Source of the DNA: a virus
DNA: 64,000 bases
Virus genome (UHGV): UHGV-1364441
Strand: one strand, 5' to 3'
Shown here: positions 7,325 through 54,144 of the stretch, piece after piece
Layout of the letters: every line of letters starts with the position of its first letter
Position numbering within the stretch: the stretch's first letter is position 1
The notes under the pieces: model-generated
Database searches by the model: none
The model's input: only the letters and a program-made list of their open reading frames with translations
What the model was told of the DNA's origin: nothing
Translations under genes and position numbers: made by a program

Positions 7325-7368
7325 CCAATTATGTTAGAAAATTCTATTCAATTATCTAACATAATTGG
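7325..7368. promoter_or_regulatory. Palindromic operator-like site: perfect 14-bp inverted repeat CCAATTATGTTAGA (16-bp spacer), upstream of the rdgC operon
   Basis: Read directly; carries the TGTTAGA core that recurs across the window. Confidence 0.55.
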
Positions 7369-12747: not shown

Positions 12748-13041
12748 TTAAGCGTGGAAAAATAACGGGCGGATATTTGGGCGAGCGGTTTGTGAAGCGA
12801 CCCAAAGCTCATACTGGGATTGCATACCAGTCCACATCTCGGCACTGGTTCCCAGAGCAGATTCCAGACGAAGCGCCATATCAGCAGAAATCCCTGCTTT
12901 CTCGTTCAGAATCCGAGAAAGCGCCGTGCGAGTAATGCCTAATGCGGCAGCTGCATCTGTGACTGATATGTCTCCCAGATACTCACGAAGAACCGCGCCA
13001 GGATGCGCGGGATTATGCATACGACTCATAGTGTTCCTCAA
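12748..13041 (-). CDS. higA: HigA-like HTH antitoxin
   Basis: XRE-type HTH ([22 protein letters not shown]); ATGA overlap with the toxin gene stop. Confidence 0.75.
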
Positions 13042-13319
13042 TGATAATCCTGATAGTCAACAAGAATTGCGTCTTCGCCTTCAAATCGGAAGGTAAGTCG
13101 CCAGTTACCGTTTACTGATATTGCCCAGTGACCTTTAAGGTCTGCCCCCTTTAGTGGGTGCAATTCCCATCCCGGCGCAGACATATCGTCCGGGCGTTTA
13201 GCTGCATTAAGAGCAGTCAATTGAATGCGTAGCTTAATCGCATGTTTAGCTTGAATGCCTGCTGTTGATCCTGTCTTGAAAAATCGTTCAAGCCCTTTAT
13301 GGCGAAATGACTTAATCAA
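13038..13319 (-). CDS. higB: HigB-like toxin (RelE/ParE superfamily)
   Basis: (M)[13 protein letters not shown] ... HPLKGD ... YQDYH; start proposed at in-frame TTG 13319 giving 93 aa. Confidence 0.7.
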
Positions 13320-13655
13320 AATAACTTCATCCGTGCCTGTATCCTGTGTATACACAGTACACACGGAGAGGGCAAAGTGCAAGCACTATTCGGATGAACA
13401 GAGTTAGTTCGTTGTTCTGGAATTTATTGATTGTCAACAAGTGACTTTCATTAAACTTAAGGCATGGACCAGCTCGATAGTGAGCTGGTTGTTATCTACA
13501 GATCGAAGGGATTCGACAAGATGAATACTTTTAATAAGCTGATTGATTTATTGAATAAATTCATTAGCGCCTCTTTAACTAAGCAGGTGTCCACGTCAGT
13601 GTTTTTGTTACTCTTCTACCTGGTATTGCGGGAGTTAACAAAGCTACTGATGTGA

Positions 13656-14309
13656 TCAAAGTATCACTGTATCTTCATCAACTTCTTTCCCAGCCAGTGA
13701 ATTTGGCTGGGGACTGCCTGCTTTAACCTTTTCATGCCCAATAATGGACAGGAACGAAGCGAGGATGCCTGTTTTGTGCTCTTTCTCGACTGTACCTGTC
13801 ATCTGTTCCACGTAATCCGCACTGGCAACGTTGTGGTATACGGTCGCGTAGCAACACAGGATCATAAGAATATGTTCCGGCCTGATGTCCTGCCAGTTCA
13901 CCCGGTAGACTTCTTCTCCGTTACCGTTGTATTCGGTGTCAACGATGGAGTCGGGGATTTCGAAAGCACCTTTGTTATTTTGCGGCAGGGATAATAGCTT
14001 CTGGAGTTTTAGCTCTCTGTATCTTTCCATCCCGACGATGATCGCAGCTCTGCCGTCGGCATGACGTGTCTTGAGTGTTACCTGGCTTGCTCCGGTGCCA
14101 GCGGAGATCGTTGGCGTAATTTCGTCTACCAGCACCTTAAATTTGCTTTTCCGCAGGGCTGCTATAGCTGGAGGAATTTTTTGCTTTTGTTCCAATGCTG
14201 ACGCGGGAAGGGGTTTTACTTCGTTAATCACGAGAGCGCCGTCTTTCAGTATTGCAGTGAGCATTTGCGGTTTGCTGGTGGTCAGGCTGAATATTGCGAT
14301 CTTTTCCAT
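13656..14309 (-). CDS. Hypothetical protein
   Basis: Start at MEKIAIFSL with strong GGAGGAAGG RBS. Confidence 0.55.
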   Translation of the reverse strand: MEKIAIFSLTTSKPQMLTAILKDGALVINEVKPLPASALEQKQKIPPAIAALRKSKFKVLVDEITPTISAGTGASQVTLKTRHADGRAAIIVGMERYRELKLQKLLSLPQNNKGAFEIPDSIVDTEYNGNGEEVYRVNWQDIRPEHILMILCCYATVYHNVASADYVEQMTGTVEKEHKTGILASFLSIIGHEKVKAGSPQPNSLAGKEVDEDTVIL

Positions 14310-14334: not shown

Positions 14335-14360
14335 ACAAAAAAAGGCCGCACATGGCGGCC
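14335..14360 (-). terminator. Terminator-like hairpin plus T-run about 30 nt upstream of the 13656-14309 start
   Basis: GGCCGC-ACATG-GCGGCC followed on the minus strand by TTTTTT. Confidence 0.45.
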
Positions 14361-14577
14361 TGCTTTGGCGTTATGACTCCCTACCGCGCTTCGGCTGAAA
14401 GTTAATCGTCAAAAGAACCTTCAACGGGAGCCGTTAGCGCGATGGATTATGTGCAGTTTGTGATTTCCAGAATAGTGTCAACTACTTTTTTGTGGATTTT
14501 TTATTTGCCTGAAATTTGGCCTAAATCATGTTGATGTAGCTTGTTGTTTTTATAACATAAAACTTCATTTTGTTTAC

Positions 14578-15201
14578 ATGAAGGACGGTGTAGTGAAGTT
14601 AAGGGTTTTGGGGGCCGCGCTCGCGGCTATGCTGGGATGTGTATCTGTAAATACAGCCACTGCAACTGCGTTACCCGCACAATTCAGGGCAGGGAAGCAG
14701 GTTATGAATAATGCTGGCGGGGATCGTTCGCAGGCGGCGATATTGGACTTTTGCAAGAGGGAGGGCATCCCATTGCGGCCTGTTGGCACTCAGTTTGTTG
14801 GCAATTCTGACTTTTGCGTTTTTGCATATACAGCGTATCTGACTGATAAAGCTATAACAAAAACAGGTTATTCAACTAAAGATACTCTTGCCAGATTAAG
14901 TCAGGGATGGCAGCAATTCGAAGTGTATCGCCAGCAAGGATTAGGTGAGCTATTGCAGCCACTTTTTATGCTTGCCTTGGTGCCAGAAGGGCAGCAATTT
15001 TTGGTTAAAAAGAGAATGCTTCGCCAAAGCGATGTTGCCGGGTTCGATAGCATGATGGCTTATGAGCGCCAACTAACTGAGCAGCGCAATAAAAAACCAT
15101 CTGCATCATGTGTGCAAAGTAAAACAGCAGAATACAGTGCAGTGGCTGGTCCTTTAGCCAAACAAATGGCAGAGCAATGGTGTAAAAAGTACGGGCAATA
15201 A
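14578..15201 (+). CDS. Secreted or lipoprotein-like hypothetical protein
   Basis: N-terminal signal peptide (LRVLGAALAAMLGC...); true start may be the GTG near 14593. Confidence 0.5.
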   Translation: MKDGVVKLRVLGAALAAMLGCVSVNTATATALPAQFRAGKQVMNNAGGDRSQAAILDFCKREGIPLRPVGTQFVGNSDFCVFAYTAYLTDKAITKTGYSTKDTLARLSQGWQQFEVYRQQGLGELLQPLFMLALVPEGQQFLVKKRMLRQSDVAGFDSMMAYERQLTEQRNKKPSASCVQSKTAEYSAVAGPLAKQMAEQWCKKYGQ

Positions 15202-15221
15202 GTTACGTAGCGGAGGCAAAA

Positions 15222-15614
15222 TTGAAAAAATTAGCTATTGCTTTATTGGCTGCTTTTCCTTTGCTGGCAGACGCTGGGAATCTGCAAGTGAAATGCGGTC
15301 AGTTTGATATAAAAATCTATCCAAACGCTATATTTCTGAACGGGAATAAGGTCGATAACGCACATCGTAAAACTGAATCTGACGTAATGAGTTATGTGTT
15401 CCAGGAATATGCAGAGATGGGAGGCACTTATACGCTGTACTCGCTTGATGTTCCTTCTCGCGGTGATATGACATTATCCCATCAATGGCAGAATGCCGAT
15501 GGCGAAGCTCTGCGCGAGGTGAAGACAGAAAAATGTGGCACTTTCCATTCTTTTGAGGGTAAAGCGCCAAATGTTAAATCTGTGCTTGAAAAACAGCGTG
15601 CAGGTGAGTTTTAA
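15222..15614 (+). CDS. Secreted hypothetical protein
   Basis: Signal peptide MKKLAIALLAAFPLLADA; GGAGG RBS; TTG start. Confidence 0.6.
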   Translation: MKKLAIALLAAFPLLADAGNLQVKCGQFDIKIYPNAIFLNGNKVDNAHRKTESDVMSYVFQEYAEMGGTYTLYSLDVPSRGDMTLSHQWQNADGEALREVKTEKCGTFHSFEGKAPNVKSVLEKQRAGEF

Positions 15615-15671
15615 CCAGTATTAATTATGCCGCCCCACCTTATAGCGGAGTGGGGCGGATTGTTCCCATTG

Positions 15672-15839
15672 TTATTTTTTTCTTTTCATTTTCATGGATT
15701 GTTTACAGGCATAAGCCAACGCCTTAGCTTTCACTTCATCCAGTTTCCCTGTAATCACTTCTTTTCCGAGAGTGACAAACCAGTCATAGCAACCGCCAGT
15801 GATGTTCTGGATTTGATAATTCAGGTAGCGAACGGTCAT
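15672..15839 (-). CDS. Small protein, 55 aa (MTVRYLNYQIQNITGG...KRKK), not in ORF track
   Basis: Own translation; ATGA-coupled to an upstream 31-aa ORF. Confidence 0.4.
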   Translation of the reverse strand: MTVRYLNYQIQNITGGCYDWFVTLGKEVITGKLDEVKAKALAYACKQSMKMKRKK

Positions 15840-15931: not shown

Positions 15932-15979
15932 AGTGACTCCTTGCTTTCGAAGCCGTCACAGACTGTTCCACGGTCTGGT

Positions 15980-16046
15980 GGCGGCGCAATACAGGTTGGA
16001 ACACCGTGAGTCAACGGGGGCTTTTAGCCACCTGTATTGCGCTGCC
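15980..16046. repeat. 17-bp inverted repeat (GGCGGCGCAATACAGGT / ACCTGTATTGCGCTGCC, 1 mismatch) with 33-nt spacer
   Basis: Read directly; lies between the Ref-like gene and the small ORF pair. Confidence 0.4.
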
Positions 16047-16156
16047 ATAACTATGACATTGGCAATCATACGAAATCCTTGAGGATTTGTCTCGTTGCGT
16101 CGAGCGGTGAACCAATCTAATCAAAATGTACAATCAGTAAATTTCAAACTCAACAT

Positions 16157-16177
16157 AAAATGTTAGAAAATTAATTC
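16157..16177 (+). promoter_or_regulatory. Operator-like motif AAAATGTTAGAAAATTAATT overlapping the Ref-like gene stop
   Basis: Instance of the recurrent TGTTAGAAA motif. Confidence 0.5.
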
Positions 16178-16749
16178 ACCATTTCTTGCACCGTCTGATA
16201 GAGCGTCATCTCTTCGGCATTGTGCCGTATAAAATCTGCTTTCCCGCCTATTTTTCCATCAGCATGAACAGGAACCAACCAGGGATATTGTTCGCGGATC
16301 TCTGCTGGCGCTGCGTGCTGGTGGTGCCATTTACACAAAGGGAGAACGTATTTATGGGCATCTTTAGCCGTTCTGCCAAATATGTGGTGGAGAGATACGA
16401 CAGGGCTATGCTTCCCGTGAAGATGGCAGGCAATACAGGGGAGTTTGCCTATAGCGTCCTGTATCCGGCGCTCTTCTGCTGTGAGTGATCTCCCTTTTAA
16501 TCCGCGTGACGGGCGCGTTTTTTTGGGGAGGGCTGACGCCGCCCTCTCTCTTCTGCGCTGTTCACTTTGCCTCACTTTTTCAAGTTTCTTTTGACGATAT
16601 TCAGGCGATGCGGCTTTTTCCCTTGCGCGTTGCTGCTGGCGTTGAGCCTGCTGAAGACGTTTTGCCCTTTGCTCTTCCCGCCATTCCGGATCAGCCAGTT
16701 TTTGCATGGCTTTTTGTCTCTGTTTCTCCCAATAACTCTGTCTCTGCAT
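16171..16749 (-). CDS. Ref-like HNH endonuclease (P1 recombination enhancement function type)
   Basis: Highly basic, K/R/E/Q-rich N-terminal half; C-terminal Cys/His cluster (CIACHLHG ... HHIFGR ... LPLCKWHH). Confidence 0.6.
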   Translation of the reverse strand: MQRQSYWEKQRQKAMQKLADPEWREEQRAKRLQQAQRQQQRAREKAASPEYRQKKLEKVRQSEQRRRERAASALPKKTRPSRGLKGRSLTAEERRIQDAIGKLPCIACHLHGKHSPVVSLHHIFGRTAKDAHKYVLPLCKWHHQHAAPAEIREQYPWLVPVHADGKIGGKADFIRHNAEEMTLYQTVQEMVN

Positions 16750-16795: not shown

Positions 16796-16830
16796 TTTGT
16801 TAGATATTCAAAATTGATTTTCTAACATAA
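16796..16830. promoter_or_regulatory. Operator-like inverted pair TTGTTAGA-N15-TCTAACA upstream of the Ref-like gene
   Basis: Read directly, 45-80 bp upstream of start 16749. Confidence 0.5.
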
Positions 16831-20535: not shown

Positions 20536-20574
20536 AAATGTGTTAGAACATTGATTTTAGTTTTCTAACATATT
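20536..20574. promoter_or_regulatory. Operator-like inverted pair TGTTAGA-N16-TCTAACA between the phosphatase and DUF968-like genes
   Basis: Read directly. Confidence 0.5.
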
Positions 20575-39519: not shown

Positions 39520-39595
39520 TGGTGGCCCCTACCGGACTTGAACCGGTGACCGTGCGATTATGAGTCGCCAGCTCTAACCACTGAGCTAAAGGGCC
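39520..39595 (-). tRNA. tRNA-Ile2 (anticodon CAU, lysidine type) or tRNA-Met-like
   Basis: Manual fold: 7-bp acceptor stem, CCA encoded, anticodon loop CUCAUAA; close to E. coli ileX; one mismatch at the base of the anticodon stem. Confidence 0.75.
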
Positions 39596-39604
39596 AGATT
39601 ACTG

Positions 39605-39733
39605 TTAATTCCGCTTACGCTTTTTGCCAGAACCGCGTAAGGCTTTTGCCGCTTGCTCGATCCCATATGCAACCACCAGCAGAAATAAAAATGTCCAACC
39701 AGGGTTCTTATCGGCAAAGGCCCAAAAATCCAT
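39605..39733 (-). CDS. Possible 42-aa membrane peptide (MDFWAFADKNPGWTFLFLLVVAYGIEQAAKALRGSGKKRKRN)
   Basis: Own translation; one TM helix plus basic tail; weak RBS. Confidence 0.25.
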   Translation of the reverse strand: MDFWAFADKNPGWTFLFLLVVAYGIEQAAKALRGSGKKRKRN

Positions 39734-40007
39734 CACTTGCAGCTACCTTTTAAGACAAAACGCCATTGCTGTTAGATTGCGGTGCCTGGTGCCTCCAGGT
39801 GACGTTAACCAGTTAACAATTAACGCCGGGATGTTTGACTTCACTATTGAGGAAAATTGTTTTAACTGTTCCGCGTGCGCTTAGCCGCATTCACCGCAAT
39901 GGTAAGAGCACTTGGCTGGCTGGGCGGCGATGACGCCTGTACGCATTTGGTGATCCGGTTCTGCTTCCGGCATTCGCTTAATTAGCCAAATACTCTTAAC
40001 GTTGCGC

Positions 40008-40094
40008 TGGCGGAGAGTAATGGAATCGAACCATCATCGCTTGCGCAATGGGACGGTTTTCAAGACCGCTTGAGCACCATGCTCCCTACTCTCC
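40008..40094 (-). tRNA. tRNA-Ser (anticodon UGA), type II with long variable arm
   Basis: Manual fold: 7-bp acceptor, 3-bp D-stem, anticodon loop CUUGAAA, variable-arm hairpin with GCAA loop, T-loop TTCGATT, CCA encoded. Confidence 0.65.
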
Positions 40095-40478
40095 GGCCGT
40101 TGTGGTGGCCGGTACTGAATCTCCGGCATACGGTGCAGCCAATTAGGACTACGGACGATCACCGCTCGCGAAAGGGAAGGTTTGCGGCCGCATTTCCCTA
40201 ACATCCAAGAAAGCTATCGCATCAGTCTGCGAATCCACCACAACGTTGAGAACACTGGTTGTCACGCTGCAACGCAACATTTATTCGTAGATTGGGATAT
40301 GACCCCGTTACGTCAGTGTTCTCAACGTTGTAGTACCGGTTACGGTTCCGGCCAGGCCTCTTCCTCAACGGGGTATTCTCCATACGGACTACCGTTTATT
40401 GGTCGTTCCTGCGGTTTATGTTGTGAAGCCAGATGCTTATCTTCTGGTTGCTTCAAAGAGCTGCACTTCATCACAACG

Positions 40479-40552
40479 GTAAGGGTACTTCGTAGGGATT
40501 CGAACCCTCTGCCAAGCACGGCGATCTCCGACGTCGCAAAATACCCTTACCT
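40479..40552 (-). other. tRNA-like fragment or structured element (T-arm-like GGGTTCGAATCCC inside a 10-bp closing stem)
   Basis: Does not fold as a canonical cloverleaf (no D or anticodon arm in register, no CCA). Confidence 0.3.
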
Positions 40553-40559
40553 GTTGTGT

Positions 40560-40635
40560 TGGTGCCGATTAACGGACTCGAACCGCTGACATCCTGCTTA
40601 CAAGGCAGGCGCTCTACCAACTGAGCTAAACCGGC
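40560..40635 (-). tRNA. tRNA-Thr (anticodon UGU)
   Basis: Manual fold: canonical cloverleaf, anticodon loop CUUGUAA, CCA encoded. Confidence 0.85.
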
Positions 40636-40637
40636 AT

Positions 40638-40714
40638 TGGCGATGGTGGGTGGATTCGAACCACCGACCGACAGCTTAGAAGGCTGCTGCTCTATCCTAC
40701 TGAGCTACACCATC
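40638..40714 (-). tRNA. tRNA-Arg (anticodon UCU)
   Basis: Manual fold: canonical cloverleaf, anticodon loop CUUCUAA, CCA encoded; 2 nt from tRNA-Thr. Confidence 0.85.
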
Positions 40715-53553: not shown

Positions 53554-53975
53554 CAGTGTGCCTCCGCAATTCCGGAATTGGTAATATTGCGATACCAAGG
53601 ATTAGTGTTTGGTTGTGATGAAGAAGAGAAACGGCCAGTAAGGACGCCATGTTGATCAGGGATCAGAGAACGGGCTTCTTTTTCAGTTGCGGCAATTGCG
53701 AAGTGATCACAGTGTTTTTGCAGGGAGTGGAAACGCCAGATAAATTCCGGGCGCGAGCAAGGATTGGCATTAACCATAGTTACGGCCTCATTCGTAGGTT
53801 TAACAACCTGCGCCCCGCTGCTAAACGGGTGGCAGGACGTGACGGGGTTAGCAGACTGGCACGAATGAAACCAGCAGGCCGAAGCCTCCCCATCACGCCC
53901 CACCATAATTCGGGCGTAACGTGGTTTTACGGACACAAAAATACCGCAATATCGGATATCTGCGGTTGTCCGCAT
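53553..53975 (-). CDS. Hypothetical protein upstream of the Rha-like gene
   Basis: Coupled ORF; an antisense ORF 53649-53993 competes, so the coding frame is uncertain. Confidence 0.3.
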   Translation of the reverse strand: MRTTADIRYCGIFVSVKPRYARIMVGRDGEASACWFHSCQSANPVTSCHPFSSGAQVVKPTNEAVTMVNANPCSRPEFIWRFHSLQKHCDHFAIAATEKEARSLIPDQHGVLTGRFSSSSQPNTNPWYRNITNSGIAEAH

Positions 53976-54120
53976 TCGTATTCAGGCTGCTAAACCCGGT
54001 CGCAGAATTTGCTACGACGACATGAATATAAGCCTGAAAACATGGAAGATCAACTAAAAATTTCAGCAATGGATGACTTCAGTCGATGATGCAGATCATA
54101 CATTCCGATTTAGAAACGGC

Positions 54121-54144
54121 AAATTAATTTTCTAACACAAAATG
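54121..54144 (-). promoter_or_regulatory. Operator-like motif (minus strand TTTTGTGTTAGAAAATTAATTT), ~150 bp upstream of the 53975 start
   Basis: Instance of the recurrent motif. Confidence 0.5.

Follow-up and report, generated by a model that had tools for sequence, protein, structure and literature searches.

Clinical and livestock E. coli, Salmonella and Enterobacter commonly harbour phage-plasmids of the P1/D6 type, which can carry resistance genes. The mechanism of the classical sim function of phage P1 has, to our knowledge, never been solved. In phage T4, Spackle (Sp), a small Sec-exported periplasmic protein, blocks the cell-puncturing lysozyme of the incoming phage; it is expressed from the infecting genome, and no stable lysogen is needed. 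Concerning P1, Sim is cited as keeping superinfecting phage from injecting DNA (PMC8546580), and plaque formation does not require simABC (PMC10695390). D6-like prophages that otherwise resemble each other are reported to diverge in the simB neighbourhood and in sit, and among those of Salmonella, pSL26_91 has its simB neighbourhood swapped for “five uncharacterized hypothetical proteins” (PMC6799933). We report here on two adjacent plus-strand genes, called G1 (the first) and G2 (the second), in the virus genome UHGV-1364441. The window, below, is the whole stretch of 64,000 nt that was analysed, and positions refer to it throughout. pSL26_91 (NZ_CP032492) was found to carry both genes.

Compared to P1 simA-simB-simC, the G1-G2 pair is likewise an accessory phage-plasmid operon of small proteins, and its two products are predicted to start with signal peptides, as do all three P1 Sim proteins. 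In most relatives the locus adjoins an immI module (c4-icd-ant), the G1 family is found in operons with genuine SimB homologues, and plaques form without it, phage D6 being a plaque former that lacks G1 and G2. The differences are that neither protein has detectable sequence or profile similarity to SimA, SimB or SimC, that the cassette is convergent with icd-ant whereas P1 sim is divergent from it, and that it lies between ref and mat, which are adjacent in P1, with sim and immI elsewhere. The early envelope exclusion proteins Sp and Imm of T4 provide a second comparison. By analogy, their early expression would fit a repressor-controlled periplasmic pair, whereas Sp is a single protein and G1/G2 a two-domain system.

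It is firmly supported that G1 and G2 form a real, conserved, accessory two-gene operon, encoding two exported proteins that act as a unit, in the sim-type slot of D6-like phage-plasmids. That they would constitute a periplasmic superinfection-exclusion module, the D6-lineage equivalent of P1 sim, is a reading to which we give a probability of about 0.4 on the sequence evidence. Database entries for both genes already exist, under the name of hypothetical proteins, and others have noted that the locus is variable. As far as the literature covered shows, there is no earlier description of the fusion of G1 with G2, of the recurrent linkage of G1 to SimB or of the candidate promoter overlapped by an operator-like site, all reported below.

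Two exported proteins

A previous sequence-only reading of this DNA had proposed two plus-strand genes between opposite-strand neighbours, and both open reading frames (ORFs) are indeed present, with mat, a 55-aa ORF and ref all on the minus strand (Table 1). The start of G1 had been placed at ATG 14578. GTG 14593 is the most likely start instead: it is preceded at 7 nt by an AAGGA Shine-Dalgarno sequence, which ATG 14578 lacks, it is the start retained by RefSeq in plasmid pTB423, and its position corresponds, in an alignment, to the ATG with which the distant homologue in locus L010 begins.

Signal peptides were called with a simple rule-based script, plus conservation. G1 and G2 both have an n-region of charge +2, a 10-residue h-region with a mean Kyte-Doolittle value of 2.4-2.6, and an A-x-A site. 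The predicted signal peptide of G1 is MKLRVLGAALAAMLGCVSVNTATATA, followed by LPA, and that of G2 is MKKLAIALLAAFPLLADA, followed by GN. All G1 family members examined, down to 23-28% identity, have a similar N-terminus, and a conserved (A/P)(L/M)P motif comes after A-x-A. The n, h and c regions were present in all homologues examined, so that export to the envelope, as had been proposed, and more precisely to the periplasm, is predicted.

The suggestion that G1 might be a lipoprotein was not upheld. Its lipobox, AMLG-C16 with Val at +2, fits the looser PROSITE pattern, the strict one being [LVI][ASTVI][GAS]C. Of the 18 N-termini of the G1 family that were examined, only 4 have Cys16; P0002, P0003 and P0007 have Gly instead, and the residue is absent from the distant members P0021-P0043 and from the G1-G2 fusions described below. 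The family as a whole is therefore not characterised by lipidation, and cleavage by signal peptidase I explains the data most economically. Most likely, G1 is cut by this enzyme before the conserved LPA motif, and lipidation of this particular allele may occur. G2 has no lipobox.

Mature G1 contains two conserved Cys pairs, C54/C75 and C173/C197, and mature G2 (112 aa) contains one. Such conservation in pairs fits oxidised, disulfide-bonded periplasmic proteins. Structure prediction yielded an all-alpha model of low confidence for mature G1, and an 8-stranded beta-barrel of fair confidence for G2 (pLDDT 81, pTM 0.74). The sole BFVD fold match of G2 below E 0.001 was a 113-aa “Lipoprotein” of Serratia phage Scapp (E 6.6e-4, TM 0.49), and function is readable from neither predicted fold. 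G1 and G2 match PHROG 12786 and PHROG 13864 respectively, both function-unassigned families. Compared to pTB423 and pN16EC0879-2, dN/dS was 0.09-0.11 for G1 and 0.06 for G2 (0.05-0.10 for mat, 0.10 for ref), values that indicate purifying selection on both genes.

G1-G2 fusions and linkage to SimB

In protein P0024 (277 aa), residues 1-157 correspond to G1 (41% identity, E 5e-37) and residues 169-277 to G2 (69%, 2e-58). P0026 (281 aa) is split in the same way, with 32% and 39% identity. In these fusions, G2 stands in place of the C-terminal disulfide hairpin of G1. Fusions of the P0024 type occupy the same mat-ref slot in Enterobacter plasmids (L010, L011, L030, L034), and a G1-G2 fusion was also found on an unrelated metagenomic contig (L012). 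The fusion recurs in many independent Enterobacter assemblies, which excludes an artefact of assembly, and the occurrence of the G1 N-domain and the G2 barrel as a single polypeptide argues that G1 and G2 work as a unit. A Vibrio plasmid carries a G1-like gene followed by a degenerate G2-like ORF. We consider it very probable, from these sequence features, that both proteins are exported by Sec with G1 cut by signal peptidase I, that their conserved Cys come in even numbers, and that the pair works as a unit.

G1 homologues also share operons with true SimB homologues, and at least three arrangements of this kind were seen. In pF719-4, L013, L025, L027 and L028, a long SimB homologue comes after G1. 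On a Citrobacter P1-like contig, a secreted protein of 123 aa, a G1 homologue, a 113-aa SimB homologue (42% identity to P1 SimB, 9e-30), icd and KilA-N follow each other in this order. In L012, a SimB homologue lies directly upstream of the G1-G2 fusion. These SimB homologues are neighbours of G1, not relatives: BLASTP gave no match of G1 or G2 with P1 SimB, which has an N-terminal DFSKxDCN...CxGxYxFSDG domain, or with the long SimB form. Together, the fusion, the SimB linkage, the Vibrio pair and the signal peptides of the Sim proteins suggest that G1, G2 and SimB are co-occurring periplasmic modules of one type of locus. We also considered whether G2 might be homologous to the C-terminal half of the long SimB form, and rejected this (hhalign probability 0.2%).

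Wherever the long SimB stands in for G2, the gene directly downstream, on the opposite strand, encodes a 116-aa protein with hydrophobic segments, D6 orf80 (7194-7544 in L002 and 6535-6885 in L005, both on the minus strand; likewise in L025, L027 and L028). It was never found with G2, and may be a partner of the long SimB form.

The slot between mat and ref

The sequence-only reading had spoken of a prophage; the element is one, in the form of a D6-like phage-plasmid (plasmid prophage) rather than an integrated prophage. Matches to the cassette were found in 116 E. coli genomes, on plasmids in 112 of them. They were also found in 67 PLSDB plasmids from Escherichia, Salmonella and Shigella, 58 of which are non-mobilizable; their size is about 78-169 kb, most being of 87-99 kb among the matches listed. 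The RefSeq plasmid pTB423 is 96% identical. The GC content of the cassette is 0.42-0.49, compared to about 0.50 in the flanks.

The slot was surveyed by tblastn across 30 related loci. Its layout is mat on the minus strand, then G1, then either G2 or, alternatively, the long SimB form with the small opposite-strand membrane protein. On the right side, most relatives have pmgF-ant-icd on the minus strand, then the 55-aa ORF, then ref, and the order G1-G2 then pmgF-ant-icd was seen in L004, L014-L017, L019, L021, L023, L024 and L026. In most relatives, the cassette thus adjoins the c4/icd/ant (immI) module. In the window, as in pTB423, icd-ant-pmgF is missing. One full-scoring C4 RNA and one sub-threshold C4-like RNA were detected (Table 1), and as icd-ant-pmgF is missing beside one of them, the element appears to have two immI-type loci, one of which is truncated.

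Table 1. Coordinates of G1, G2 and surrounding features (window positions, except for D6 orf79, which is given in locus L002).
Feature	Position	Strand	Details
mat	13656-14309	-	left flank of the G1/G2 cassette
Intrinsic terminator (upstream hairpin)	14343-14361	-	7-bp GC stem + U7; -15 to -16 kcal/mol, z -2.3 to -2.7
Candidate sigma-70 promoter of the cassette	14531-14558	+	TTGATG (14531-14536), 16-nt spacer, TAACAT (14553-14558); 8/12 consensus
C1-operator-like site GTTGTTTTTATAACATA	14543-14559	+	covers spacer and -10 of the candidate promoter
G1	14593-15201	+	GTG start; 202 aa; predicted exported; signal peptide 14593-14670; mature from LPAQF (14671)
G2	15222-15614	+	TTG start, GGAGG Shine-Dalgarno 6 nt upstream; 130 aa; predicted exported; signal peptide 15222-15275
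GC-rich hairpin + U-rich tract (downstream hairpin)	15630-15682	+	stem about 15630-15660; -21 kcal/mol, z -3.0
55-aa ORF	15672-15839	-	right flank, convergent with G2
C4-like antisense RNA	15974-16052	-	between ref and 55-aa ORF; 39.7 bits, E 1.4e-5 (gathering score 45)
ref	16171-16749	-	Pfam RecA_dep_nuc, 2.7e-36
Full-scoring C4 RNA with a1/b1 target element	53825-54031	-	38 kb away
D6 orf79 (“simB-like”, 298 aa)	L002 6258-7154		annotated product, G1 start at front

Deletion in phage D6 and divergence of G1

In phage D6, only the mat-proximal 295 bp of the cassette region match. Identity spans the promoter/intergenic region and the first 13 or so codons of G1, then breaks, and G2 is absent. 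As identity ends there, the annotated orf79 is best understood as a deletion fusion, in which the start of G1 has been joined upstream of a long SimB-type gene. The latter has a start and a signal peptide of its own (MKNGKRF...TFA-YDFSK), as in pF719-4. The real SimB-type protein of D6 therefore probably starts internally, at a place where pF719-4 has MKNGKRF and D6 has IKNGKRF preceded by MFF.

G1 diverges much more than its neighbours. Its identity falls to 39-66% where that of Mat is 74-98% and that of G2 69-94%: values for Mat, G1 and G2 were 85, 66 and 94% in L023, 86, 58 and 92% in L026, and 74, 41 and 69% in L010, and L025, which has no G2, gave 98% for Mat and 63% for G1. The protein is a mosaic, made of a variable N-terminal mature segment (39-53%), a conserved core (57-79%) with a GYSxKDT motif, and a C-terminus for which two alternative, unrelated disulfide-hairpin modules exist. 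The choice between the two does not track the presence of G2 or SimB downstream. On these comparisons, the G1 alleles appear to be old and shuffled by recombination. Recent positive selection on G1 was considered and dropped, because dS is saturated between allele types and the claim cannot be made.

A recombination joint was noticed within the operon, at about 15201-15222. The window and pTB423 are 100% identical over the part from G2 to ref, against 94-95% for G1 and mat, and the window is therefore recombinant relative to pTB423.

A candidate promoter overlapped by a C1-operator-like site

A consensus promoter scan with a 9/12 threshold detected no plus-strand promoter for the cassette; the best candidate, at 8/12, was read from the sequence (Table 1). 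Its TTGAT and TATAACATAAAA blocks are conserved in D6 and pTB423. No site for the P1 C1 operator consensus ATTGCTCTAATAAATTT was found in the window, which prompted the search that led to a D6-type motif: the region upstream of the cassette was searched for words repeated elsewhere in the window. This yielded the 17-bp motif ATTRRTTTTCTAACATA, for which 14 sites exist in the window at 3 mismatches or less, compared to 0.65 expected, a number reached in none of 100 shuffles. The copies are at 7330-7363, 14543, 16159, 16813, 20539-20572, 32234, 33635, 38066, 41937, 43187, 54123 and 55326; two inverted pairs are formed, and all copies checked were intergenic. Three of them parallel the P1 C1 operators Oref, Omat and Oc4 in position: the copy at 16813 lies upstream of ref, that at 16159 at the end of this gene, and that at 54123 upstream of the C4 RNA. 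The motif is thus probably the C1 operator of the D6 lineage.

The copy at 14543-14559 has 3 mismatches in the window, and 2 in D6 and pTB423. The chance of finding a random 3-mismatch copy in the 283-bp spacer is about 0.003. We regard the odds as about even that a weak sigma-70 promoter, with a C1-operator-like site lying across it, drives the operon. In that case, expression would be repressed, at least in part, in a stable lysogen and would peak just after infection or induction. With such a site over the putative -10, constitutive expression in lysogens is not to be assumed. In this respect the pair would differ from phage morons, which are constitutive, whereas its promoter is apparently wired into the C1 repressor network. 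It would otherwise resemble them, being opposite to its neighbours, with a putative promoter and a probable terminator of its own, a variable content at a fixed slot and a slightly lower GC content.

Hairpins on either side of the cassette

The cassette had been described as bounded by terminators. Both hairpins exist, and only the downstream one serves the cassette. Lying between the convergent G2 and 55-aa ORF, it is probably the terminator of the operon, and hairpins of other sequence are found at the same position after the stop codon in L010, L030, L034 and L029. The upstream hairpin was rejected as a 5′ boundary: its U-run is on the minus strand and it lies within the leader of mat, so it does not bound a plus-strand operon. 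It is placed directly before the mat ribosome-binding site, where it closes a conserved leader (about 14481 to 14335, minus strand). In L010 and L030, hairpin and U-run are kept with a different stem sequence.

This leader opens with TTGACA...CATAAT, at a 24-nt spacing that does not make a canonical sigma-70 promoter. About 85 nt of it are near-invariant, even where Mat is only 74-76% identical. It had no match in Rfam, and has the appearance of an attenuator, or of a small RNA about 100 nt long.

Distribution of the family

Among 5.8 billion proteins searched, only 9 clusters were found for G1 and 11 for G2, and an exhaustive profile search of 1.84 billion representatives returned 23 relatives of G1. 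Two scans of 185,579 species-representative genomes yielded no relative, and tblastn of G1 and G2 against 50,697 phage records gave no match. Apart from one Vibrio plasmid and one Rep3 plasmid-like contig, the family is essentially limited to P1/D6-type plasmids of Enterobacteriaceae, its hosts being plasmids of Escherichia, Salmonella, Shigella, Enterobacter, Citrobacter and Vibrio.

Elsewhere in the window, a HigB/HigA-type toxin-antitoxin pair adjoins tail genes, and three tRNA genes are found further on (12748-13382 and 39523-40714, both on the minus strand). D6 and pF719-4 have a different toxin-antitoxin set at the place of the HigB/HigA-type pair.

What the pair may do

As the cassette occupies the D6-lineage counterpart of the P1 sim locus, exclusion of rival phages is its most likely job. 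The sequence-only reading had proposed a superinfection-exclusion or conversion factor; the accessory nature of the cassette, its slot, the presence of SimB homologues in the same operons and the proximity of c4/icd/ant in relatives lend this proposal indirect support, and the lack of homology to SimC does not. In such a mechanism, related phages would adsorb, and a G1/G2 complex would halt the incoming genome or the injection machinery on the way from outer membrane to cytoplasm. Specificity would be borne by G1, the mosaic and rapidly diverging partner.

Several observations weigh against exclusion. SimC is annotated as the superimmunity protein, SimA and SimB being listed only as putative accessory functions, and it is the only Sim protein with a demonstrated exclusion phenotype, yet G1 and G2 have no homology to it. 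BLASTP of G1 and G2 against P1 SimA, SimB and SimC gave E values all above 0.08 (3 or more against SimC), and hhalign of the G1 family profile against SimC gave a probability of 0.1%. By tblastn across the related loci screened, SimC itself was found in P1 only. Scans of G1, G2 and the 55-aa ORF with Pfam, NCBIfam and PADLOC returned nothing at curated cut-offs: PADLOC gave no family at E 0.1 or below, and the best Pfam match was GH131_N (E 0.067, 13.3 bits, under the 23.1-bit cut-off). Two carriers of G1-like genes, a conjugative Vibrio plasmid and a Rep3 plasmid-like contig where no phage genes are in view, suggest that the function may not be phage-specific. In the window itself, icd and ant are absent, and adjacency to immI comes down to a sub-threshold C4-like RNA. 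Last, with a C1-operator-like site lying over the candidate promoter, strong expression in stable lysogens becomes less likely.

A more detailed version of the exclusion reading is that G1, G2 and the SimB domain are interchangeable modules of a hitherto unrecognised family of multi-component, SimC-independent periplasmic exclusion complexes of P1/D6-type phage-plasmids. G1 would set the target, perhaps by binding Sit, the tape-measure/transglycosylase that is injected and that is encoded in the other region reported as divergent, while the G2 barrel or SimB would be the effector or the anchor, and the whole, wired to C1, would act mainly in freshly infected or induced cells. We propose it very tentatively, and hold it to be rather doubtful as a whole.

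Alternatively, the pair may guard the periplasm against a non-phage enzyme or toxin, as an orphan immunity to a peptidoglycan-degrading bacteriocin or to a type VI secretion system (T6SS) effector, or as a lysozyme inhibitor, which would be a case of lysogenic conversion. Family members on plasmids that do not look like phages are in line with this, and the old, divergent G1 alleles would fit an arms race between toxin and immunity. We nevertheless find it unlikely. No cognate toxin gene lies nearby, Pfam offers only the sub-cut-off GH131_N match, and profile searches of the PDB with the G1 and G2 families gave nothing meaningful, with no hit below E 0.2. The family is missing from the species-representative genomes, and nearly confined to P1/D6-type phage-plasmids at the sim/immI position. 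As for the C-type lysozyme inhibitors PliC and MliC, which are periplasmic or membrane-bound, and other small beta-barrel immunity proteins, the barrel match of G2 is generic, avidins and lipocalin-like barrels scoring higher, and the Pfam and PDB searches gave no match for either protein at the gathering cut-off or below E 0.2.

It might also be that G1 and G2 serve the lytic cycle of the phage itself, by tuning endolysin or spanin, or by remodelling the envelope before release. From the C1-operator-like site over the promoter, one would expect the operon to be expressed after infection or induction, as this role would require, and the neighbour mat is a maturation-control gene. Against it, D6 forms plaques without either gene, P1 simABC, the analogous locus, is likewise dispensable for plaques (PMC10695390), and an unrelated SimB-type protein can take the place of the second gene product of the slot. 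Moreover, divergence of the G1 alleles far outpaces that of structural genes, as would be unusual in a housekeeping lysis function, and we judge this role to be distinctly improbable.

In a third alternative, G1 would be an outer-membrane lipoprotein exposed at the surface, masking a receptor for instance, like T5 Llp or phi80 Cor, with G2 as its periplasmic partner. The lipobox of this allele fits the PROSITE-type pattern with its Val at +2, one UniRef entry of the same cluster is auto-named “Lipoprotein”, and the BFVD match of G2 bears the same name. The Cys16 of the lipobox is however Gly in three relatives and absent from the distant members and both fusions, while A-x-A followed by LPA or MPA is universal, and G2 has no lipobox, which makes this alternative very improbable. 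Finally, chance or decaying frames without function, which the absence of annotation in family libraries might suggest, are already refuted by the dN/dS of 0.06-0.11, the strong Shine-Dalgarno sequences of both genes, the conservation across plasmids of six genera with Cys pairs and motifs kept, and the domain fusion maintained in many assemblies.

The exclusion reading bears on which phage-plasmids co-infect or displace one another, a question that is poorly understood. The locus offers two new periplasmic protein families, a natural fusion that predicts a physical complex, a repeated linkage to SimB, and a set of divergent natural alleles that could be used as a specificity panel. Should the pair not exclude phages, it is one more accessory gene pair. 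If it does, it would provide a tractable handle on a periplasmic block to DNA entry, and would help to predict incompatibility or exclusion groups among phage-plasmids.

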